Shown: one piece after another, positions 383 to 39,923 of the stretch | Numbering within the stretch: the first letter of the stretch is position 1 | Layout: the number at the start of each line of letters is the position of its first letter | From: Arcobacteraceae bacterium | Lineage (GTDB): Bacteria; Campylobacterota; Campylobacteria; Campylobacterales; Arcobacteraceae | DNA: 64,000 nt | Assembly: GCA_963662945.1 (NCBI GenBank) | Contig: OY759974.1 | Coordinates: 2,400,001 to 2,464,000, forward strand | Direction of reading: 5' to 3' | Translations under genes and position numbers: made by a program | The notes under the pieces: generated by a model | What the model saw: only the letters and a program-made list of their open reading frames with translations | Told to the model about the DNA's origin: nothing | Databases searched by the model: none

Positions 383-946
383 ATGGCTAGAACATTAATG
401 AGATTTACAGGTGTTGGTGGACAAGGTGTTCTTCTTGCTGGTGAGATTTTTGCAGCTGCAAAAATCAAAACTGGTGGACACGGACTAAAAACAGCTACAT
501 ATACATCACAAGTAAGAGGTGGACCAACTGTTGTTGATATCACTTTAGATGATGAAGAGATTTTTTACCCTTATGCAAATGATGGAGAGATTGACTTTAT
601 GCTTTCTGTTGCACAAGTAAGTTTTGACCTGTTTAAAGGTGGGGTATCTGAGGGTGGTACAATTGTTATTGAACCAAACCTTGTAAAAGCTACAGAAGAA
701 GATAGAAAAAAATGGAATATCGTAGAGATACCAATTATTACTATAGCAAAAGAAGAGGTTGGTAATGTTATTACTCAATCTGTTATTGCTCTTGCTATTG
801 CTAATAACTTTATGAGTGCTATTGATAAAGACGTTCTTAGAGAAGTTATGCTTTCTAAAGTACCTGCAAAAGTACATGATGTAAATATTAAAGCGTATGA
901 TTTAGGATATAAATATTCTGATGAAGCAAAAGCTGCAATGAAATAA
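383..946 (+). CDS. oorC: 2-oxoglutarate:acceptor oxidoreductase gamma subunit
   Basis: N-terminal RFTGVGGQGVLLAG and TYTSQVRGG motifs; RBS AAGGAG. Confidence 0.92.
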   Translation: MARTLMRFTGVGGQGVLLAGEIFAAAKIKTGGHGLKTATYTSQVRGGPTVVDITLDDEEIFYPYANDGEIDFMLSVAQVSFDLFKGGVSEGGTIVIEPNLVKATEEDRKKWNIVEIPIITIAKEEVGNVITQSVIALAIANNFMSAIDKDVLREVMLSKVPAKVHDVNIKAYDLGYKYSDEAKAAMK

Positions 947-1392: not shown

Positions 1393-2274
1393 TTATATTC
1401 CTTCATTGTCAAAAAAATCATTATCTAATATTTTAACTTCGTAATAACTTTGAACTTGTACACCTACATTGTACTTATGCATTAAATCTACTAGTTTAGA
1501 GCCACTAATTAAAATAATTGTATGGTGTGCTTCTTTTGCTTTAATTTTAGCATTTTCATCAAAAGAAGATGTTGTAACAAAAATACCTTTTCTTGTGTCT
1601 CCGCTCATTGCACCAATAAAGTTTCTTATATCAGTTTCTCTTACTTTATTTTCACTATATCTTTTAGCTTGAATATATATTTTTTCTAATCCTAGTTGAT
1701 CTTCGTTAATTATACCATCAATTCCACCATCTCTTGATTTAGTTGTTTCAACAAAATCTCCATACCCCATTTTTTTCAAAAGTATTAAAATGATTTTTTC
1801 AAAGGCATAAGGATCCACCTCTTTAAGTTTTGTAAGTAATTCATCTTTAATTTCACTTTCAATTTTAGCAATTCCTGAATCAATTAAATCTTGAGGAGTA
1901 GCATTGTTTTGAACATCTATATTTGAAGTATTACTTGGTTGCTCTGGTTCATAAAATGATATAACATTTGATTCAATTTGTTGTAAAGATAAATTGTTAG
2001 GATTAACCTTTTTACCTTTTTCAGTAATTTGAATGTGCCCTCTTTGCGGATAATGAACTAGTCCACCTTTTTTTAAATAAGATTTCCCCCAAGCTATTCT
2101 ATTTTCAATTAATCTACCACCACTCTTTGTCGTTTGTGATAATAATTCACTAGGTAAATTTTTATAGTATTTTTCTTCAACTTTTTTAATTAAATCTCTA
2201 CTTTTTAATATTTGACCATCTTTTAAGATTTCAAGTATAGGTAAAAAAGTTTCATTAAATTTTGGTATTTCCAT
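1393..2274 (-). CDS. mrr: Mrr-family type IV restriction endonuclease
   Basis: Mrr N-terminal wHTH (ENRIAWGKSYLKKGGL) and catalytic motifs DGGIDG...YIQAKRY...GIFVTTSSF. Confidence 0.92.
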   Translation of the reverse strand: MEIPKFNETFLPILEILKDGQILKSRDLIKKVEEKYYKNLPSELLSQTTKSGGRLIENRIAWGKSYLKKGGLVHYPQRGHIQITEKGKKVNPNNLSLQQIESNVISFYEPEQPSNTSNIDVQNNATPQDLIDSGIAKIESEIKDELLTKLKEVDPYAFEKIILILLKKMGYGDFVETTKSRDGGIDGIINEDQLGLEKIYIQAKRYSENKVRETDIRNFIGAMSGDTRKGIFVTTSSFDENAKIKAKEAHHTIILISGSKLVDLMHKYNVGVQVQSYYEVKILDNDFFDNEGI

Positions 2275-32362: not shown

Positions 32363-34303
32363 TTGTCACAACAATTACTACAAAAACAAGCGGATACAAT
32401 TAGATTTTTAGCAGCTGATATGGTACAAGCTGCGAATAGTGGGCATCCTGGTGCTCCAATGGGATTAGCAGATATAGCTACAGTTTTAAGTAAGCATTTA
32501 AGACTTGACCCAAATAACACACAATGGTTAAATAGAGACAGATTAGTTTTTTCAGGTGGTCATGCTTCATCACTTGTTTACTCTTTATTACATCTTTGGG
32601 GATTTGATGTAACTTTAGAAGATTTAAAACAATTTAGACAAACAGGAAGTAAAACTCCAGGACATCCAGAATATGGACATACAAGTGGTGTAGAGATTAC
32701 AACTGGACCATTAGGGCAGGGTATCGCAAATGCTGTTGGTTTTGCAATGGCAAGTGCTTATGCAAAACATTGTTTAAATAGTGAAACAGCGCAAGTTATC
32801 GATCATCATGTATATTGTTTATGTGGTGATGGAGATTTACAAGAGGGTATCTCTTATGAAGCGTGTGCTACTTTAGGACACCAAGGAATTTCAAACTTTA
32901 CACTTATTTATGATTCAAATGATATTACTATTGAGGGTGATATCTCTATTGCTTGGTCTGAGGATGTTGCAAAAAGATTTGAAGCTATTAACTTCAATGC
33001 TGTGACAATTGATGGGCATGATTTTGATGCTATTGATAAAGCTATAACTGATTCAAAAAACAGTTCAAAACCTACAATTATCATAGCGAAAACTGCTATT
33101 GGAAAAGGTGCTGCTACATTAGAGGGAAGTCATCATACACATGGTGCACCACTTGGAGCTGAAGAGTTAGCTGCTTCTAAAACAAAAGCTGGTTTTGATC
33201 CTGAAAAATCATTTTTTATACCAGAAGATGTAAAAGCAGCATTTGATAAAACAGAGTCAGGTGCTTTACAAAGTAAAGCTTGGGAAAAACTAGTTAAAAA
33301 AGACTTACCATTAAGTGAGCAAAATGAAGCATTAAATGCACTTTTAAATCCAGATTTTTCTAAAGTAAATTATCCAGATTTTAGTGATGTAGATTCTATG
33401 GCAACAAGAGATTCAAATCACAAAATATTAAATGCAATTGCTGGTGCAGTTCCATCATTTTTAGGTGGAAGTGCAGATTTAGCACCATCAAATAAAACTG
33501 AGTTGATGGGACTTGGTGATTTCCCAAGAGGAAGAAATATCCACTTTGGTATCAAAGAACACTCAATGGCAGCTATTACAAATGCTATGAATATTTATGG
33601 ATTATTTAGAGTATTTAGTGCAACATTCTTTATCTTTAGTGATTATTTAAAACCAGCTGCAAGAGTAGCTGCACTTTCAAGTATCCCACAACATTTTGTA
33701 TGGACACATGATAGTATTGGAGTAGGGGAAGATGGTGCAACTCATCAACCTATCGAGCAACTAAGCCAATTTAGAGCATTACCAAACTTTTATACATTTA
33801 GACCTGCTGATGCTACTGAAAATATTGAGTGTTGGAAAACTGCATTTACACTAAATGCACCTACAGCTTTTGTATGTTCTAGACAAAAGTTAACTAACTT
33901 AAAAGGGCAAAAAGTAGTTGGAGATGTTTCAAAAGGTGGATATCTTGTAACAAAACACGATAAAGCAGATGTAACATTTATGGCAAGTGGGAGTGAAGTA
34001 TCACTTTGTCTTGAAGCTGCTAAGTTATTAGAAAAAGCAGGAGTATATGCAAATGTTGTATCTGTTCCTTGTTTTGATTTACTTGTAGAGCAAGATATAG
34101 ATTATATTGATGAAATCATTGATATGAACAATACTTTTGTAGTAGCTGTAGAAGCTGCAACTGCTATGGAATACTACAAATTTGCTGATGTGGTTATCGG
34201 TATGACTGGATTTGGAGAGAGTGGACCTGCTGAGGAACTTTTTGAAAAATTTGGTTTCACACCAGAAAAAATCGCTGCTAGAGTTCAAGAGATAGTAGCG
34301 TAA
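32363..34303 (+). CDS. tkt: Transketolase
   Basis: SGHPGAPMG, TPGHPE, GDGDLQEG and THDSIGVGEDGATHQP; TTG start after AGGA. Confidence 0.97.
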   Translation: MSQQLLQKQADTIRFLAADMVQAANSGHPGAPMGLADIATVLSKHLRLDPNNTQWLNRDRLVFSGGHASSLVYSLLHLWGFDVTLEDLKQFRQTGSKTPGHPEYGHTSGVEITTGPLGQGIANAVGFAMASAYAKHCLNSETAQVIDHHVYCLCGDGDLQEGISYEACATLGHQGISNFTLIYDSNDITIEGDISIAWSEDVAKRFEAINFNAVTIDGHDFDAIDKAITDSKNSSKPTIIIAKTAIGKGAATLEGSHHTHGAPLGAEELAASKTKAGFDPEKSFFIPEDVKAAFDKTESGALQSKAWEKLVKKDLPLSEQNEALNALLNPDFSKVNYPDFSDVDSMATRDSNHKILNAIAGAVPSFLGGSADLAPSNKTELMGLGDFPRGRNIHFGIKEHSMAAITNAMNIYGLFRVFSATFFIFSDYLKPAARVAALSSIPQHFVWTHDSIGVGEDGATHQPIEQLSQFRALPNFYTFRPADATENIECWKTAFTLNAPTAFVCSRQKLTNLKGQKVVGDVSKGGYLVTKHDKADVTFMASGSEVSLCLEAAKLLEKAGVYANVVSVPCFDLLVEQDIDYIDEIIDMNNTFVVAVEAATAMEYYKFADVVIGMTGFGESGPAEELFEKFGFTPEKIAARVQEIVA

Positions 34304-34319
34304 CTCTTAAAATGGCAGA

Positions 34320-34374
34320 TATCAATAATGCAGTTGTGATTGTCTCAATCGCTGCGTTATTGATAGGCTTTTTT
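34320..34374 (+). terminator. Probable tkt terminator
   Basis: TATCAATAATGCAG...CTGCGTTATTGATA stem followed by a T run. Confidence 0.6.
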
Positions 34375-34404
34375 CTTTATATTATTTTTTAACTTATTAA
34401 AATA

Positions 34405-34938
34405 TCACTTTGGTCTAAATCCTATTAAATTATCATTTGTCTTTTGAGTATCTTGTAAGATTTGATGTAAGAGTTCAAAAGCTTCATCTATTCTATGAGT
34501 ATTGTAGTTTTGATGTTGTTGGTCAATTTTAATCGTTTTTTCTATCTCTTCTATTCTCTGTGCTATATCTTTATAGTTTAAAGCAAATTCTCTCATTTTT
34601 GTAAATGTTCGCATGATAGTAAGAGTCACTTCTGTAGCAACTTGACTTTTTAACACCGTTGCCAACATATACACTCCCTGTTCTGTAAAAACTTTAGGTA
34701 AATATTTTCTATCTTTTAAGCTTTCTTTAAAGGTCGCATTTTGCGACCTTAAGATATCTACTTCTTCCTTTGTCATCTCAAAAAATAAATCGCAAGGAAA
34801 TCTTTCAGGATTTCTTTTAACAGCTTCATTTATCCTTTTTGTTTCTACATTGTATAAATTTGCTAAATCACTATCTAACATAATATTGAGATTACGAACT
34901 TTATATATCTTTGTTTCTATATTATTTACAATTTCCAT
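34405..34938 (-). CDS. ORF6N-domain DNA-binding protein
   Basis: MLDSDLANLYNVETKRINEAVKRNPERFP, FTEQGVYMLATVLKS and C-terminal IGF. Confidence 0.88.
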   Translation of the reverse strand: MEIVNNIETKIYKVRNLNIMLDSDLANLYNVETKRINEAVKRNPERFPCDLFFEMTKEEVDILRSQNATFKESLKDRKYLPKVFTEQGVYMLATVLKSQVATEVTLTIMRTFTKMREFALNYKDIAQRIEEIEKTIKIDQQHQNYNTHRIDEAFELLHQILQDTQKTNDNLIGFRPK

Positions 34939-35025
34939 ATCTGATACTCCTATTTTTTCTAAAGTATCTTATCATCTTTTTTAATTTGAGATTGAAAATA
35001 TGGCATATTGTAATATTTATGTTTT

Positions 35026-35259
35026 TTAGCAGAGTGTTTTTTGTCTGTTTATTTTTTCTTCTATAGTTTTAGTTGTATTATTAATATTGTCGTATAATGA
35101 TTTTCTTTGGTCATGTGTAATATCTTCTGATAGTAAATATTCTAATATGTTTAATGTTGTTTCAACAAGTATATAATCCTCTTGAAGGTCTTTTTTATAT
35201 TTTTCAATTCTTTGTATTGATGATTTTATTTTATCTTTCAAAATCATTCTTTTTCTCAA
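35026..35259 (-). CDS. Small hypothetical protein
   Basis: Helical 73-77 aa ORF overlapping the upstream ORF; start uncertain. Confidence 0.45.
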   Translation of the reverse strand: MRKRMILKDKIKSSIQRIEKYKKDLQEDYILVETTLNILEYLLSEDITHDQRKSLYDNINNTTKTIEEKINRQKTLC

Positions 35260-35458
35260 TTTCTTTTAAGTAGTATTCAAGTACAAAAATTACATTATCA
35301 TTTTTTTCTAACCATTTATGTATCTCTTTATTTGAAGCATTTGTATTTAGTAAAATATTTATCTTTTTTAATAATATTTTAGTGAATAGATATTTTTCTT
35401 GGATTGTTTCATAATTTTTATCTATTCTTTGTTTTAGGTTTATTATTGTTTGTTGCAA
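35231..35458 (-). CDS. Small hypothetical protein
   Basis: 75-aa ORF, TTG start after AAGG, divergent from the XRE gene. Confidence 0.5.
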   Translation of the reverse strand: MQQTIINLKQRIDKNYETIQEKYLFTKILLKKINILLNTNASNKEIHKWLEKNDNVIFVLEYYLKEIEKKNDFER

Positions 35459-35485
35459 ATTTTAGCCTTTGAAAAATATTTCAAA

Positions 35486-35559
35486 TTTATCCTATAGGAT
35501 AAAGATTTTTTAATTATATAACTATAAAGTTTAATTTTAAATTAACTCTATAGGATAAA
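35486..35559. promoter_or_regulatory. Pair of operator-like sites in divergent promoter region
   Basis: Perfect palindrome TTTATCCTATAGGATAAA (35486-35503) and a 15/18 copy TTAACTCTATAGGATAAA (35542-35559) overlapping the XRE gene RBS. Confidence 0.7.
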
Positions 35560-35563
35560 TAAG

Positions 35564-35815
35564 ATGGAAACCGATTTTAGTAACTCAACAAAAGAAGAAA
35601 TAAAAAAGTTTTATGAAAATATTTCAAAAAAAGTAAAGTTTTTTCGAGAAAGTAAAAATATAACTCAATTGGATTTAGCTTTGGATATAGGGATAAAGTC
35701 TGTAGCCTTTTATTCAAATTGTGAAAATAATAAATATGATAAACATTTTAATTTAGAACACTTGTATAAAATTGCCAAGTCTTTGAAGGTAGATATTAAT
35801 GAGTTTTTTAATTAA
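35564..35815 (+). CDS. XRE-family helix-turn-helix regulator
   Basis: VKFFRESKNITQLDLA...YSNCEN...LYKIAKSL. Confidence 0.85.
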   Translation: METDFSNSTKEEIKKFYENISKKVKFFRESKNITQLDLALDIGIKSVAFYSNCENNKYDKHFNLEHLYKIAKSLKVDINEFFN

Positions 35816-35835
35816 ATGTTATGATTATTTAGTAG

Positions 35836-35970
35836 GTATAACGTCTGAACTGAAGGACGATGACCCCATCAATATGTTTGCTGGCTTCTTTTTTAACTAA
35901 TACATAAAAGCTAATTTAGGCTTAAATATTTGCAGGGGTCACGCGTTCTTTTTCCTGTATTTTGTTATAT
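35836..35970 (-). other. attC site of cassette 4 (135 bp)
   Basis: Minus strand: ATATAAC-aaaat-ACAGGAAA...GTGACCCC...GGGGTCAT...tcagac-GTTATAC. Confidence 0.75.
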
Positions 35971-35992
35971 CTTATATAGTTTATGCTAATTA

Positions 35993-36349
35993 TTACAGTC
36001 TATCTGCATAACAAGTCCCATTGTCTTTTTTACCCCATTTATTCTCAATATAAATATATTCTCTATCCTCAGGTTCATAGTGATGAAATTTATAAGTGTA
36101 ACTATCATTTTTATATATAATGATTTCAGTTTTGAAATCATCATATTCTGATAATTTCTTTGAAAATGAATCAACTTTCCAAACGGTATATTTATTGTTA
36201 ACAAGAATTTTATTACTATCTAAATATCTACCAAATACTTTTATAGTGATATTGTCACCACTTTTCATTTTACATTCTAAATTATATATAAATGCCTTTG
36301 CATTTGTAAAAATTCCAAAGATTAATAATATGCTTAATAAGAACTTCAT
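35993..36349 (-). CDS. Cassette 4: small exported protein of unknown function
   Basis: Signal peptide MKFLLSILLIFGIFTNAKA, two Cys near the mature termini, purine-rich RBS. Confidence 0.75.
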   Translation of the reverse strand: MKFLLSILLIFGIFTNAKAFIYNLECKMKSGDNITIKVFGRYLDSNKILVNNKYTVWKVDSFSKKLSEYDDFKTEIIIYKNDSYTYKFHHYEPEDREYIYIENKWGKKDNGTCYADRL

Positions 36350-36389
36350 TTGAATATATCCTTTTATAAAGTAAATAGCTATTTTGTAG

Positions 36390-36522
36390 ATATAACGACC
36401 GAGTTGAAAAACAAGGTGTTATTTTTAATAAGATGTTCAAATCTTCATCTAAGTAATTTTACAAGATAAAGCTTAAATAATTGTAGTGTAACCTTGTTTT
36501 TCTTTCCAACGATTTGTTAGAT
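36390..36522 (-). other. attC site of cassette 3 (133 bp)
   Basis: Minus strand: ATCTAAC-aaatc-GTTGGAAA-GAAAAACAAGGT...ACCTTGTTTTTCAAC-tcggtc-GTTATAT. Confidence 0.82.
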
Positions 36523-36523
36523 T

Positions 36524-37006
36524 TTATAATATCTCAATATATGAATTATCTTTTTTTATTTCTTGTCTTAAATTTAGAATAAATTCAAGTTTTAATTTTC
36601 TGACATATTGTTTTAAATATTTTTTTGGCAAAAACTTAGTCCACATAGGTAAATCAAATTTATCATTTAAATAATATTTATCAAAATATATTTTAACAAT
36701 TTTTAAATTTTTTCCTTTTGTGTTTGTTGGAATAAAACATCTCCATGGTTTTTGATTATATAATATATTATTTTTAAAAGGTGTTGATTCATTCATACTA
36801 ATTTGTTGAACTTTTCCAGACCATTTAAATACAAGAACTACACCTTGATTTTGAAATTCCTGTCCGTAGTTATACCCTTGCTTTATAGAACAAAAACAAT
36901 TTAAACAAGAATCACCATTATAAATATTTCTTGAAAAAGGTATAAATTGTTTGCTTTTAATAATATTTAATGCAGAAGTTAAATTTGTAATATGATAAAT
37001 ATACAA
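36524..37006 (-). CDS. Cassette 3: protein with ADP-ribosyltransferase-like N-terminal YHxT motif
   Basis: The ORF-track start (37090) lies inside an attC. A better start is TTG 37006 after AAGGA, giving MYIYHITNLTSALNIIKSKQF (160 aa). The stop abuts attC R''. Confidence 0.7.
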   Translation of the reverse strand: MYIYHITNLTSALNIIKSKQFIPFSRNIYNGDSCLNCFCSIKQGYNYGQEFQNQGVVLVFKWSGKVQQISMNESTPFKNNILYNQKPWRCFIPTNTKGKNLKIVKIYFDKYYLNDKFDLPMWTKFLPKKYLKQYVRKLKLEFILNLRQEIKKDNSYIEIL

Positions 37007-37047
37007 TGATAGTCCTTTTTTATTACATAGTAAAATTTGATTTATAA

Positions 37048-37117
37048 ATCTAACGTTTGACTTGAGAAATAGTTGTGCCCGCAGGGTCAACTATTTCTCT
37101 CCAAGGTTTTGTTAGAC
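37048..37117 (-). other. attC site of cassette 2 (70 bp)
   Basis: Minus strand: GTCTAAC-aaaac-CTTGGAGA-GAAATAGTTGACCCTGCGGGCACAACTATT-TCTCAAG-tcaaac-GTTAGAT. Confidence 0.9.
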
Positions 37118-37128
37118 TTTTAATACAA

Positions 37129-37923
37129 CTATCCAATGTATAAATCATTCACCATTAATGGTACTTTGTGTAATTTATAATCAAGTTTTTTCATTAATTT
37201 TTCTTGCTCGTTTTGAATAAAAGGTTCTTGTCTTCTTTGAGTATCTTGTTTATATGTCCTAATTTCTTGTAGCATCTCTCGATTATGCTCTTCTTGTCCT
37301 CTTATCATTTCTCTTAATTGACGCTGATTATGTCTAATTTCATCTTGACCATTTAATAAATCAATGTGAGTTGGTTGCTCATTATGTATATGTATCTCTT
37401 GATTTATATTTATAATTTGTCTATCTTGAGCAAAGATAGAATCTAATGATGTATTAAGTCCATATATGATAACTCCTTCTGCCAAAATAGCTAACACTTT
37501 TTTTCCATTCAAGTGATACTTGTGTGGCGAATTTAATTCAATTTTTGTAAAGGACAATGCTTGTTCATCAACATAAATTGGTTCATACTTTCCATGACTA
37601 TTCCCACACATAATAATTGGTCTTTGGAGGCTGTGAAATTTTTTCCAAAATGATTTAGCATCTCTCTCTTTACTTTCAAGAAATACAAAATCATTATAGT
37701 TTTCAATAGTGTATTTTTCAGCTTCTTTTGGAACTGTTGAATATAAATCAAAAGAACGAGTAGCAATGATAAAATCTGAATCATGTGCACCATCTGCATA
37801 TAGTTTTTCCATGCTTTCAAGCATAGATAATTTCATATAATATTCACCAAGGAAAGTAACTGTATGTCCCATCATCCAGTGAGGTTGAATTGTTGGTGAT
37901 TGGAAAACTGTATTAATATTCAT
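37129..37923 (-). CDS. Cassette 2: hypothetical protein (hydrophobic segment + coiled coil)
   Basis: 264-aa ORF filling the space between two attC sites; RBS AAGGA. Confidence 0.8.
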   Translation of the reverse strand: MNINTVFQSPTIQPHWMMGHTVTFLGEYYMKLSMLESMEKLYADGAHDSDFIIATRSFDLYSTVPKEAEKYTIENYNDFVFLESKERDAKSFWKKFHSLQRPIIMCGNSHGKYEPIYVDEQALSFTKIELNSPHKYHLNGKKVLAILAEGVIIYGLNTSLDSIFAQDRQIININQEIHIHNEQPTHIDLLNGQDEIRHNQRQLREMIRGQEEHNREMLQEIRTYKQDTQRRQEPFIQNEQEKLMKKLDYKLHKVPLMVNDLYIG

Positions 37924-37941
37924 TTATTATGTCCTTTTGTA

Positions 37942-38010
37942 GTCTAACGGTTGAAGTGAGCTAATAAATTGCCCGCAGGGTAATTTATTAGCTCCTCTGA
38001 TTTGTTAGAC
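37942..38010 (-). other. attC site of cassette 1 (69 bp)
   Basis: Minus strand: GTCTAAC-aaatc-AGAGGAGC-TAATAAATTACCCTGCGGGCAATTTATTA-GCTCACT-tcaacc-GTTAGAC. Confidence 0.9.
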
Positions 38011-38048
38011 ATTAGTAAAATTTTTCTATATCTATAATTCATTAAGTT

Positions 38049-38972
38049 TTATAGAATTTTTTCTCTATTGATTTTTTCTTGATTTAAAGTAAAACCTTTG
38101 TTATTAAACACAGTTATTTGTAAATAATCATTAGATTGGTCATCAATATAGTCTCTAAAATTAATAAAATTATTTTCTTCAATAATTTTAAAATCATTAC
38201 TTATAATTTTTGAACTATTATTAGACTCTAAAACTATAGATAAACTTTTAATTAAAAAATATGTAAGTGATTCAGTTATTTTAATTACTGTATTAACCAT
38301 AGGGTATTCATATACATCAGAATCTATGAGTAGTATATTATCTTCTGTATCTTTAAAGCATGAAAAACAACATTGAATGTATGGTTCAACAGATGATAAG
38401 TGGGTAAGTATGTTTCTAAAGCTTTTTTTATTTCCTTTTTCAAGTAAATTAAATATATGTGATTTTAATTCATCTATTTCTTTTTGGAGTAATTTTATAT
38501 TATCCTTTGAATGATTTTTAACATATGATTCAAATAATTCAAAGTCTGATTGCTTTGGCTTTTTTAATTTTCTAGCAGGTTTTCCAAAATTTTTATAAAC
38601 AAAGTTGAAAAAGATATCTAAAGTGGATTTAGAATGCATAATAAAAGATCCAAAATCAGATGCAATTGTTACTTCATTAAATAATAATAATTCATTGTTC
38701 TCTTTATCTTTTATTGTTGTTGTGTTATGAGATTGTTTTATTAAATTAATAGATTTTTGTCTGATTTGATAAGAATAATATAGGATAGTAAACATTTTTT
38801 CTTTAAATGAGTTAGTGTCTTGTAAGCTAGAACTATCTAATTCTTTATGTACTTCTTTGTACATATTTAATGCATTTTCATTAGCAAAACCTTCAAAATA
38901 TGGATATAGTAAGCTTCTATTATAACTCGTATAGTTTTCACCATTTTTATTAAAATATAAATTCAAGTTCAT
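38049..38972 (-). CDS. Cassette 1: putative HEPN-domain protein
   Basis: Helical 307-aa protein with Rx4H motif (FRNILTH) and upstream SFIMHSKSTLD segment. Confidence 0.7.
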   Translation of the reverse strand: MNLNLYFNKNGENYTSYNRSLLYPYFEGFANENALNMYKEVHKELDSSSLQDTNSFKEKMFTILYYSYQIRQKSINLIKQSHNTTTIKDKENNELLLFNEVTIASDFGSFIMHSKSTLDIFFNFVYKNFGKPARKLKKPKQSDFELFESYVKNHSKDNIKLLQKEIDELKSHIFNLLEKGNKKSFRNILTHLSSVEPYIQCCFSCFKDTEDNILLIDSDVYEYPMVNTVIKITESLTYFLIKSLSIVLESNNSSKIISNDFKIIEENNFINFRDYIDDQSNDYLQITVFNNKGFTLNQEKINREKIL

Positions 38973-38977
38973 CCTTT

Positions 38978-38998
38978 GTCTAACTCTTTATTGAAGAT
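38978..38998 (-). other. attI-like recombination site
   Basis: Minus strand ...CTTCAATAAAGA-GTTAGAC-AAAGG-ATG. The core site has no inverted partner and lies directly before cassette 1. Confidence 0.65.
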
Positions 38999-39000
38999 AC

Positions 39001-39028
39001 ATTATATATAAAACACCCTGAAAATCAA
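39001..39028 (-). promoter_or_regulatory. Pc-like cassette promoter
   Basis: Minus strand TTGATT-N16-TATAAT, pointing into the array, 16 bp before the GTT core. Confidence 0.6.
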
Positions 39029-39410
39029 TAAATAACATACATAAAAAATGTTGTTTTATTTATTCGTTATAAAGCCTTTAAATAAAAGTCTTCTTACACA
39101 TTTTACTGTAAAAAACATTGCAATTTAAGATATTTTTTAAATAAATTTTAAGTTTTTGCTACAATTTTTATGTATGTTTAATGTCGATATTTCGATGATA
39201 ATAGTACATAATGTATGTATATTAAGACAATATCGTAATAAACCTGCATTATGTTAAATATATTGGGAGAGATATTATAAGTAAATAAAATCGAATGAAC
39301 TGTAACCAAACTTTACAAAAATATTCTCTTATAATCAATCTAAATCCTTATTAGCAACACTTTATCTCTCTATGCTATAATATCTCATAATTAACTATTA
39401 GGAGAGCAGA

Positions 39411-39923
39411 ATGATGGGATTTACAAAATTTAAAGGTACAGATGTAACATTAGAGGGAACACAACTAGAAGTTGGGGATATGGCTCCTGTTGTTACTATA
39501 GTTGGGGCTGATTTAGAAGATATTGAAGTTGGTGGTTCAAATGACCAAATACAACTTATCATCTCAGTACCATCTCTTGATACAGCAACTTGTGCAGCTG
39601 AAACTCGAAGATTCAATGAAGAGGTTGGGGCACTTGATATTTGTACAACAACTGTTATCTCTATGGATTTACCATTTGCAAGTGCAAAGTTCTGTACAAC
39701 AGAAGGTATAGATAACCTTGAAGTTGGAAGTGATTATGTTGATAAAGAGTTTGGAAAAGCTTATGGTGTATTGATGACTGACAATAAACTAAAAGGTTTA
39801 CTTGCTAGAACAGTTTTTGTAGTAGATAGAAATGGTATCATAGTATATAAACAAATAGTTCCAGAAGTTACAGCTGAACCAGATTATGAAGAGGTTTTAG
39901 AAGCGATTAAAGGGGCAAGATAA
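39411..39923 (+). CDS. tpx: Thiol peroxidase
   Basis: VPSLDTATC, SMDLPFA..FC and LLARTVFV. Confidence 0.93.
   Translation: MMGFTKFKGTDVTLEGTQLEVGDMAPVVTIVGADLEDIEVGGSNDQIQLIISVPSLDTATCAAETRRFNEEVGALDICTTTVISMDLPFASAKFCTTEGIDNLEVGSDYVDKEFGKAYGVLMTDNKLKGLLARTVFVVDRNGIIVYKQIVPEVTAEPDYEEVLEAIKGAR

Follow-up and report, generated by a model that had tools for sequence, protein, structure and literature searches.

An integron platform without its integrase in an Arcobacteraceae genome and its possible servicing in trans

A platform between tkt and tpx that has lost intI

We examined a 64-kb stretch (genome positions 2400001-2464000), hereafter the window, of an Arcobacteraceae genome of 2.50 Mb (a 2,497,315-bp contig; G000). 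The segment inserted between tkt and tpx (34.4-39.3 kb of the window) is almost certainly an integron platform from which the integrase gene, intI, was deleted and which retains genuine gene cassettes. It would consist of a promoter, an attI site (G|TTAGAC, at 38984), four cassettes with a single open reading frame (ORF) each, and a distal block. The locus is one of five platforms without an integrase in this genome, a point that goes beyond an earlier note on this DNA, and the only integron integrase gene of the genome lies approximately 0.6 Mb from the array. The explanation that we judge best overall, with a probability of about 0.7, is that of an intI-less integron serviced in trans. The earlier note, made from the letters of the window, had suggested such a satellite platform; comparison with relatives supports the suggestion, and the servicing itself is something that we infer.

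The region upstream of ORF1 provided the clearest indication of how the platform arose. A module of approximately 300 bp (38981-39288, minus strand), which we designate the Pc-attI module after the cassette promoter Pc and the attI site, was 81% identical over 309 nt to the whole intI-attI spacer of a complete integron in the genome G008. In G008, 280 bp separate the 28-nt core from an intact intI, which has the ribosome-binding site GGGAGG and a GTG start codon. The homology runs to this ribosome-binding site and start codon and then ends. What appears to be left of intI in the window is the ribosome-binding site GGGAGA (39265-39270) and about four recognizable but decayed codons (39265-39300, plus strand, aligned to G008), and another copy of the module, near 3.4 kb of the genome, retains about six codons. 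Because the homology to the G008 spacer stops at the intI start codon, the window locus can be regarded as an integron with a deleted intI, that is, as a deletion derivative of a complete integron, which the earlier note had not proposed. Further identities of the module are 86% (copy at genome 3447-3741), 76% (copy at 1876333-1876612) and 72% over 119 nt (spacer adjacent to intI in G000).

The lone GTTAGAC (38984-38978), which lies 5 nt ahead of the ORF1 start at 38972, had been called attI-like. Our results allow it to be raised to an attI site: the core to which it belongs is identical at 26 of 28 positions to the site beside the G000 intI, in addition to the homology of the entire module to the G008 spacer. 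As judged by homology, its position is that of attI, since the core lies between intI and the first cassette in both G000 and G008. We then considered the crossover point. In an alignment of 23 module copies (6 from G000 and 17 from 12 other genomes), column conservation was near-maximal through AGTTA and fell to background from the next base, with unrelated cassettes following the copies. This break at GTTA coincides with the integron crossover point G|TT, and hence with the cassette boundary, and cassettes start at the identical base whether they follow attI or attC. The presumed crossover in the window is accordingly placed at G|TT of the core motif at 38978-38984 (minus strand).

The promoter described in the earlier note, TTGATT-16-TATAAT at 39028-39001 (minus strand), agrees with the consensus at 10 of 12 positions. 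Its hexamers are kept in most of the 23 module copies, with the -35 part being absent from the intI-adjacent copy of G000. A consensus scan did not reveal an enrichment of promoter-like hexamers over shuffles (36 vs 33.7±5.6), and we regard Pc as a candidate promoter on the basis of its conservation rather than its match to the consensus. Comparison of third-position identity with module identity between G000 and G013 (0.73-0.86 vs 0.87) did not indicate a clear constraint on the module as a whole. Within the module (window 39206-39254, minus strand) we also noted an inverted repeat, ACATAATG and CATTATGT, 33 nt apart, seen as a 49-nt inverted BLAST self-match of 77.5%. The repeat is present in the G008 intI-attI spacer as well and is a candidate operator between two divergent promoters.

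Four attC sites in the window

Read on the minus strand, the promoter match and the lone GTTAGAC are followed by ORF1-attC1-ORF2-attC2-ORF3-attC3-ORF4-attC4. The attC sites were examined with R1, a purpose-built covariance model distinct from the attC_4 model of IntegronFinder. Its seeds were four integrase-adjacent attC sites, three from other Campylobacterota assemblies and one from the intI locus of G000, and included no window sequence. All four sites of the earlier note, with their lengths of 69, 70, 133 and 135 bp, were recovered by R1 on the minus strand at full length and with exact ends: attC1 (37942-38010; GTCTAAC...GTTAGAC; 62.8 bits, E 1.3e-13), attC2 (37048-37117; 78.7 bits, E 8.3e-18), and the long-loop types attC3 (36390-36522; 24.6 bits, E 0.0015) and attC4 (35836-35970; 22.5 bits, E 0.0054). 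The opposite strand of attC1 scored only 28 bits, and the next R1 match in the 64 kb had an E value of 1.3. Across the genome, R1 matches at E<=1 were confined to cassette loci, namely the intI locus, the window and two others (7 matches, 5 sites). Two of the sites also resemble attC sites of the intI-linked array: attC4 its first (81% identity over 134 nt) and attC2 its second (90%).

The sequences of attC1 and attC2 folded into imperfect hairpins (z -5.3 to -5.6), with 0 of 200 shuffles being as stable. In the DNA folds, R pairing extended over 5-7 bp, the spacers were 4-5 nt, the asymmetry of the arm on the R'' side was 2-3 nt and the stem was 13-17 bp. The folding energies of attC3 and attC4 were indistinguishable from those of shuffles (z -0.8 to -2.3). 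The match of attC3 to R1 is full-length with a 69-nt loop insertion, and the arms of both long sites fit the model with loop insertions of the 69-nt class. The R''/R' pairs of the four sites (GTCTAAC/GTTAGAC, GTCTAAC/GTTAGAT, ATCTAAC/GTTATAT and ATATAAC/GTTATAC) contain no or one mismatch each. The R' boxes of attC3 (GTTATAT) and attC4 (GTTATAC) deviate from GTTRRRY in having T in place of R, and a strict motif scan (RYYYAAC...GTTRRRY plus stem) was therefore blind to them; it returned only attC1, attC2 and two chance palindromes, and was superseded by arm patterns and R1. No relevant Rfam family was found on window 34000-39500 or on the intI locus.

With four attC sites in 2.2 kb and the nearest intI about 0.6 Mb away, the array is a cluster of attC sites without an integron integrase (CALIN), for which we required at least two clustered attC sites and no integron integrase within 4 kb. 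It is not a complete integron, as only the remnant of about four codons is left of intI, and its four attC sites are below the >19 sites that Cury et al. 2016 (PMC4889954) set for sedentary chromosomal integrons.

A single integron integrase at a distance

Seven PF00589 matches were found in the genome and none of them lies inside 2400001-2464000, in agreement with the earlier note, which had seen no tyrosine recombinase there. A tblastn search with the G000 IntI across the window also gave no intI or intI pseudogene (best E 1.2). The sole integron integrase of the genome is encoded at 545688-546632. The gene is free of stops, and its product scores 403.1 bits with TIGR02249, for which the cut-off is 265, over model positions 1-313 of 315; the cut-off was exceeded in 0 of 14 control genomes. 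The earlier note would have reduced the array to a relic if the genome held no intI anywhere; one intact gene is present. Upstream of it we found a spacer, then TATATAATGTATATTCAATAAATAGTTAG, and then three cassettes. IntI relatives at 60-88% identity are common in assemblies of Arcobacteraceae, Sulfurimonas and Sulfurovum, and the integron family is therefore native to this organism. To plasmid-borne class 3 IntI, the identity of the G000 IntI is 45.5%, and it stays below 60% for every IntI on a plasmid among the best 5000 records.

At the far end of the intI-linked array (genome 549155-549500), and likewise at that of the platform near 3.4 kb (genome ~400-650, minus strand), only the R''/L'' half of the final attC is kept. 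At the intI locus, this half is followed by a stretch of about 330 bp with two short palindromes, which interrupts the third attC. A repeated element was considered for this stretch and rejected, as it is unique in the genome.

Different cassettes at the same site in relatives

The interval between tkt and tpx, for which the earlier note had advised a comparison among strains, turned out to be empty in two relatives and to carry a different set of ORFs and cassettes in a third. Only 105 bp, with a 26-codon ORF as their sole content, separate tkt from tpx in G015 and G020, whose tkt is 83-84% identical. The interval measures 4.6 kb in G013, whose tkt is 95% identical. G013 and the window have in common the upstream region of tpx, the intI remnant and the module, as one continuous alignment of 87.5% identity over 481 nt, and at the far end an ORF6N-domain gene that is 77% identical. 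The interior of the G013 interval contains five different ORFs (224, 251, 190, 148 and 71 aa), with three attC sites detected by R1 at E<=3.4e-4 and one weak site, and its matches to the window array are of attC size only. G006 (tkt 94%) carries other genes and ORF6N remnants at this position, and no module. Since the integrase-less junction is common to G000 and G013, the deletion of intI predates their split, and replacement of the cassette sets came after it. In a comparison of the empty and filled sites for a target-site signature, no junction could be placed because the tpx side was too diverged.

Orthology of the tkt-tpx platforms was assigned by flanking genes because the module tree could not separate orthologue from paralogue here, with identities of 85.5% to the orthologue and to a paralogue alike. 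The tree did resolve two module lineages and the orthologues of the platform at 1876 kb. The intI-adjacent module of G000 falls in a clade with those of G017, G012 and G018.

The 26-codon ORF, MADINNAVVIVSIAALLIGFFLYIIF, lies directly after tkt in the window (34312-34392, plus strand) and is conserved in G013, G006, G015 and G020. It lies 10 nt ahead of tpx in the genomes with an empty site, and resembles a tiny membrane peptide rather than a terminator.

Further platforms on chromosomes and plasmids

Six copies of the 28-nt core were found in G000: beside intI, in the window, and at ~3.4 kb, 1431 kb, 1876 kb and 1981 kb (below, 3.4k, 1431k, 1876k and 1981k). Five of them are without an integrase. 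The window, 3.4k and 1876k copies have ~290 bp upstream of the core in common, and the other two ~140-160 bp. Each of the six modules is followed, in the same orientation, by ORFs and attC sites, which by our own count amount to ~13 cassettes over the six arrays. Three cassettes are present at 3.4k, where the final attC is truncated, 1876k has one cassette with a 55-bp attC, 1981k has one two-gene cassette, and 1431k has one ORF with a degenerate attC.

Of 24 genus relatives sampled, 12 carry the core when at most two mismatches are allowed, and a reversed-pattern control gave no match in any of 41 genomes. The copy number is six in both G006 and G009, three in G013, and two in each of G015, G018 and G020. 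R1 detected attC sites within 1.5 kb in 8 of 18 module loci of relatives, always downstream and on the strand of the module. An intI (at E<=1e-40) was found in 10 of the 24, and IntI-like sequence in none of eight compared platform loci. According to their flanks, 1981k is orthologous to a platform at 1530k in G013, and 1876k to platforms in G006 and G009, that of G009 (L112) being orthologous by flank and module. The parts covered of the cassette regions of G013 1530k and the 1876k-type platform of G006 gave no match of at least 150 nt in G000, and both platforms thus differ in cassette content from their G000 orthologues.

The module was also found on seven plasmids of Aliarcobacter and Arcobacter (77-80% identical), at up to five places per plasmid. 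On the A. cryaerophilus plasmid pACRY43158 (NZ_CP032824.1, 39093-49385), it is followed by a cassette region annotated as Shedu immune nuclease, with two R1 matches; no integron integrase above the family cut-off is encoded on this plasmid.

Two side observations concern the placement of these loci. A second variable spot in the window (1393-2274, minus strand), in the gap after a 613-aa gene, holds an ORF of 293 aa that is, by eye, of the Mrr-like restriction-endonuclease type; in G009, the same spot is occupied by a promoter-attI module and one cassette (locus L099). Cumulative GC skew of the genome has its minimum at ~1.275 Mb and its maximum at ~0.095 Mb. If these extremes correspond to origin and terminus, four of the six arrays, that of the window included, would be transcribed against replication, which would place attC bottom strands on the lagging-strand template.

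Cassettes younger than the backbones that carry them

The first cassette of 1981k is 98% identical (327/335) to a cassette in G011 that is situated at another locus, five positions into an array. The homology begins at GTTATATTT, which follows attI in G000 and attC in G011. The gene flanking the G011 platform is only 79% identical to that in G000, and the cassette is thus much younger than its platform. As 1981k lacks intI in both G000 and G013, a young cassette at its attI is, in our view of these comparisons, the strongest single argument for insertion in trans. The G000 cassette (genome 1980950-1981776, minus strand) contains a 96-aa ORF and a 146-aa ORF, the latter GNAT acetyltransferase-like by eye, and is probably a toxin-antitoxin pair. 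The G011 copy (L132 3730-4097) does not have the second gene, and its start ATGAATAT runs straight into an attC.

A similar pattern was found for a cassette of the window. The ORF2 cassette, which runs from the GTTAGAC at 37948 up to and including attC2, has 95.6% identity over 941 nt with a metagenome locus (L133) in which it is the first cassette, directly after an attI-like core (…ATATAATGTAGTTGAATAAATAGTTAG|AC…), and whose backbone genes are only 69-73% identical to those of G000. A second metagenome contig (L134) carries it at 86% identity after a different attC. In both cases the homology begins at GTTAGAC.

Cassette contents and the distal block

Cassette 1 encodes a protein of 307 aa with an Rx4H motif (RNILTH; 38049-38972, minus strand, as are all cassette ORFs). 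ORF1 and the divergent start of tpx (39411-39923, plus strand) are separated by 438 bp of non-coding DNA, corresponding to the roughly 400 bp of the earlier note. ORF2 (37129-37923) encodes 264 aa. ORF3 (36524-37006; ~160 aa) most likely starts at the TTG at 37006, with AAGGA 6 nt upstream, rather than at the start of the longest ORF, which lies inside attC2. ORF4 (35993-36349) encodes 118 aa with an N-terminal hydrophobic leader.

None of the four ORFs has a Pfam or PADLOC match, and no relative of ORF1 was found in 120 family genomes. ORF2 has four close relatives among 5.8 billion proteins. No attC match was found near the ORF2 relatives in G072 and G023. In a language-model comparison, the clusters nearest to ORF1 include Cthe_2314-like HEPN proteins, which we take as a lead only. 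For ORF3 the nearest named clusters are ADP-ribosyltransferase-like (DarT, Arr, Tox-ART-HYD1) with low shared-feature counts, a weak lead. Such leads may hint at defence or toxin cassettes.

Beyond attC4, the array probably continues past 35836, and the block at 35026-35835 is probably a fifth cassette without a closing attC. The block contains a gene with an HTH_3 domain (Pfam; 35564-35815, plus strand) and a gene on the minus strand in two parts (35231-35458 and 35026-35259). In G015 the block is 82% identical over 770 nt, and the two short ORFs (75 and 77 aa) correspond to a single 124-aa ORF, which identifies the window gene at 35026-35458 as frameshifted. This block also comes after the final attC of arrays in G011 and G020. 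The insert ends with the ORF6N-domain gene (34405-34938, minus strand; Pfam ORF6N 1.2e-31, PADLOC PDC-S05 1.5e-60), and the flank on that side is tkt (32363-34303, plus strand). The gene is multi-copy in the genus and is located at the far end of several arrays, including that of G013 at tkt-tpx; the copy at 1981k (genome 1980667-1980807) is N-truncated right at an attC. Its position is somewhat like that of a 3' conserved segment.

Servicing in trans and its alternatives

Taking the anatomy and the comparisons together, the action in trans of one resident IntI would be the simplest mechanism. Most likely, the IntI encoded ~0.6 Mb away acts on the attI of the window. Circular cassettes would be inserted by attI x attC recombination at G|TT and removed by attC x attC recombination, and the promoter would express whichever cassette comes first. 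The five integrase-less platforms and the intI-linked array appear to draw on one cassette pool. We put a probability of about 0.65-0.7 on servicing of the window platform in trans, whether current or recent. That its attI matches the recognition of the resident IntI, that recombination continues at this locus and that the promoter fires are points that we infer from sequence.

A number of observations weigh against this. The modules of the integrase-less platforms and the intI-adjacent module form separate clades, 64% identical over 261 aligned nt with only the 28-nt core in common, and in the classes studied attI recognition is integrase-specific, as reported in PMC2095811. Five relatives, G006, G009, G011, G015 and G020 (each 99% complete), carry modules and attC arrays without an intI at E<=1e-40, and at that threshold no intI was found in the module carriers G004 (93% complete) and G005 (84%) either. 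These platforms persist without a resident integrase, and therefore relics and transient servicing fit alike. Signs of decay are also present: the attC that ends the intI-linked array is truncated, as is the one that ends 3.4k, the attC of 1431k is degenerate, and the gene after attC4 is frameshifted. In the genomes searched, no relatives of ORF1, ORF3 or ORF4 were found. Cassette sets may also have been swapped when DNA was taken up and recombined homologously through flanks that the genomes have in common. Finally, no recombination event was observed. The public sequencing runs, four in number, consist of contigs only, and a half share seen in one of them reflects patchy cover at low depth. 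One contig spans 34581-39194 without a difference, and apparent joints in run contigs correspond to paralogous platforms (for example, 761 letters between attC1-like and module-like parts).

These points raise the possibility that the window array is a frozen relic, an ordinary CALIN in which no recombination has taken place since the deletion of intI. The differences between genomes would then predate the deletion, or result from homologous replacement of the array, from the module to the ORF6N end, after DNA uptake. The five nearly complete relatives without intI, the truncated or degenerate attC sites at three other arrays and the frameshifted block are all consistent with this, and the conserved flanks (module 87.5%, ORF6N side 77% to G013) would allow such replacement. 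We nevertheless consider a frozen relic unlikely. G000 and G013 have the same intI-less junction and no cassette in common. The cassette at the attI of 1981k is 98% identical in a genome with a 79% backbone, and so is much younger than the platform. Moreover, the 28-nt core is nearly invariant in 23 copies, across species and also on plasmids, and an intact IntI is encoded in G000.

A further alternative takes the 300-bp module for a mobile element, a promoter or a regulatory one, that has no relation to attI and beside which an integrase inserted attC-bounded genes at secondary sites of the attG type. The module is indeed multi-copy, occurs on plasmids and has a good promoter match, and integrase-driven insertion outside att sites has been described (10.1101/2022.09.11.507474). 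This is very improbable, as it is this very module that separates intI from the first cassette in the two complete integrons of G000 and G008, and its homology ends at GTTA in 23 of 23 copies. Cassettes are found on one side only and in one orientation, and insertion at secondary sites would not bring with it the ribosome-binding site and first codons of intI. That the attC sites are chance palindromes of AT-rich intergenic DNA, a reading to which the ordinary stability and modest E values (0.0015 and 0.0054) of attC3 and attC4 might lend themselves, is refuted for practical purposes by the R1 scores of attC1 and attC2 (E 1e-13 and 8e-18), the full-length recovery of all four sites with the expected ends, the 81% and 90% identity of attC4 and attC2 to intI-adjacent attC sites, and the confinement of genome-wide matches to cassette loci.

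Beyond the window, we tentatively raise the possibility of a distributed integron in the Arcobacteraceae: a family of heritable, intI-less promoter-attI pads, chromosomal as well as plasmid-borne, that draw on a common cassette pool and on which one integrase, either resident or transient, acts in trans. Several first-position cassettes would in that case be expressed simultaneously, each from one of a set of identical promoters. The landing pads themselves may spread, for example on plasmids.

Comparison with known integron systems

The usual picture of an integron has a single integrase with a single attI and a single array, of which only the promoter-near cassettes are expressed, and CALINs are treated as debris. 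Here, what would be classed as debris of the CALIN type retains an insertion site and a putative promoter, occurs more than once in the genome, at loci that are conserved, and appears to have undergone cassette turnover after the loss of the integrase. If the resident integrase does service these platforms, the unit of integron function would be the genome and not the locus, and more than one cassette could occupy the expressed first position simultaneously. The 28-nt core and the 300-bp module provide an attI model for a Campylobacterota integron family, with which searches for attI can go beyond classes 1-3. Plasmids of Aliarcobacter species from food and animals carry such platforms too, one of them with a cassette annotated as a Shedu defence nuclease.

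The superintegron of Vibrio is one large array beside intI, with mostly ORFs of unknown function, toxin-antitoxin cassettes and lineage-specific attC families. The G000 arrays resemble it in being chromosomal, in the predominance of ORFs of unknown function, in a probable toxin-antitoxin cassette and in their attC sequence families. They differ in being six in number and small, with one to four or five cassettes each, and in that intI adjoins a single one of them. With the mobile integrons of classes 1-3, the system has in common a divergent intI, a promoter directed into the array, an attI crossover in GTT, and then cassettes. It differs in its IntI (45.5% to class 3), and no resistance genes were seen.

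Integrase loss is among the origins proposed for CALINs in PMC4889954, where about half of them are in genomes with an IntI elsewhere. The window array is similar in having at least two attC sites, no intI nearby and an IntI encoded elsewhere in the genome. Unlike a CALIN so defined, the window platform retains a recognizable attI, a promoter-like sequence and the intI ribosome-binding site, and the genome carries the element five times, at positions conserved between species, with further copies on plasmids. In the literature examined, attI retention in CALINs is not generally surveyed, because IntegronFinder detects attI of class 1 only (PMC9024848). In Xanthomonas, the preprint 10.1101/2025.06.18.660453 describes an integron at ilvD with an inactivated intI, CALINs at conserved loci, and CALINs that can be mobilized in trans. 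The two systems are alike in that platforms are inherited at fixed sites, integrase function has been lost repeatedly, and CALINs are conserved in position away from intI. In that description, lineages with a dead intI have identical, stable arrays, whereas here orthologous platforms carry unrelated cassettes, and near-identical cassettes occur in distant backgrounds.

Among the results listed by our literature searches, none dealt with chromosomal integrons native to Arcobacteraceae, or with attI sites that are multiple or orphan. What appears to be new relative to the systems above is a candidate attI-promoter module that is kept without intI, occurs five times per genome and on plasmids, is conserved across genera, and is accompanied by comparative evidence pointing to the insertion of cassettes at an orphan attI.

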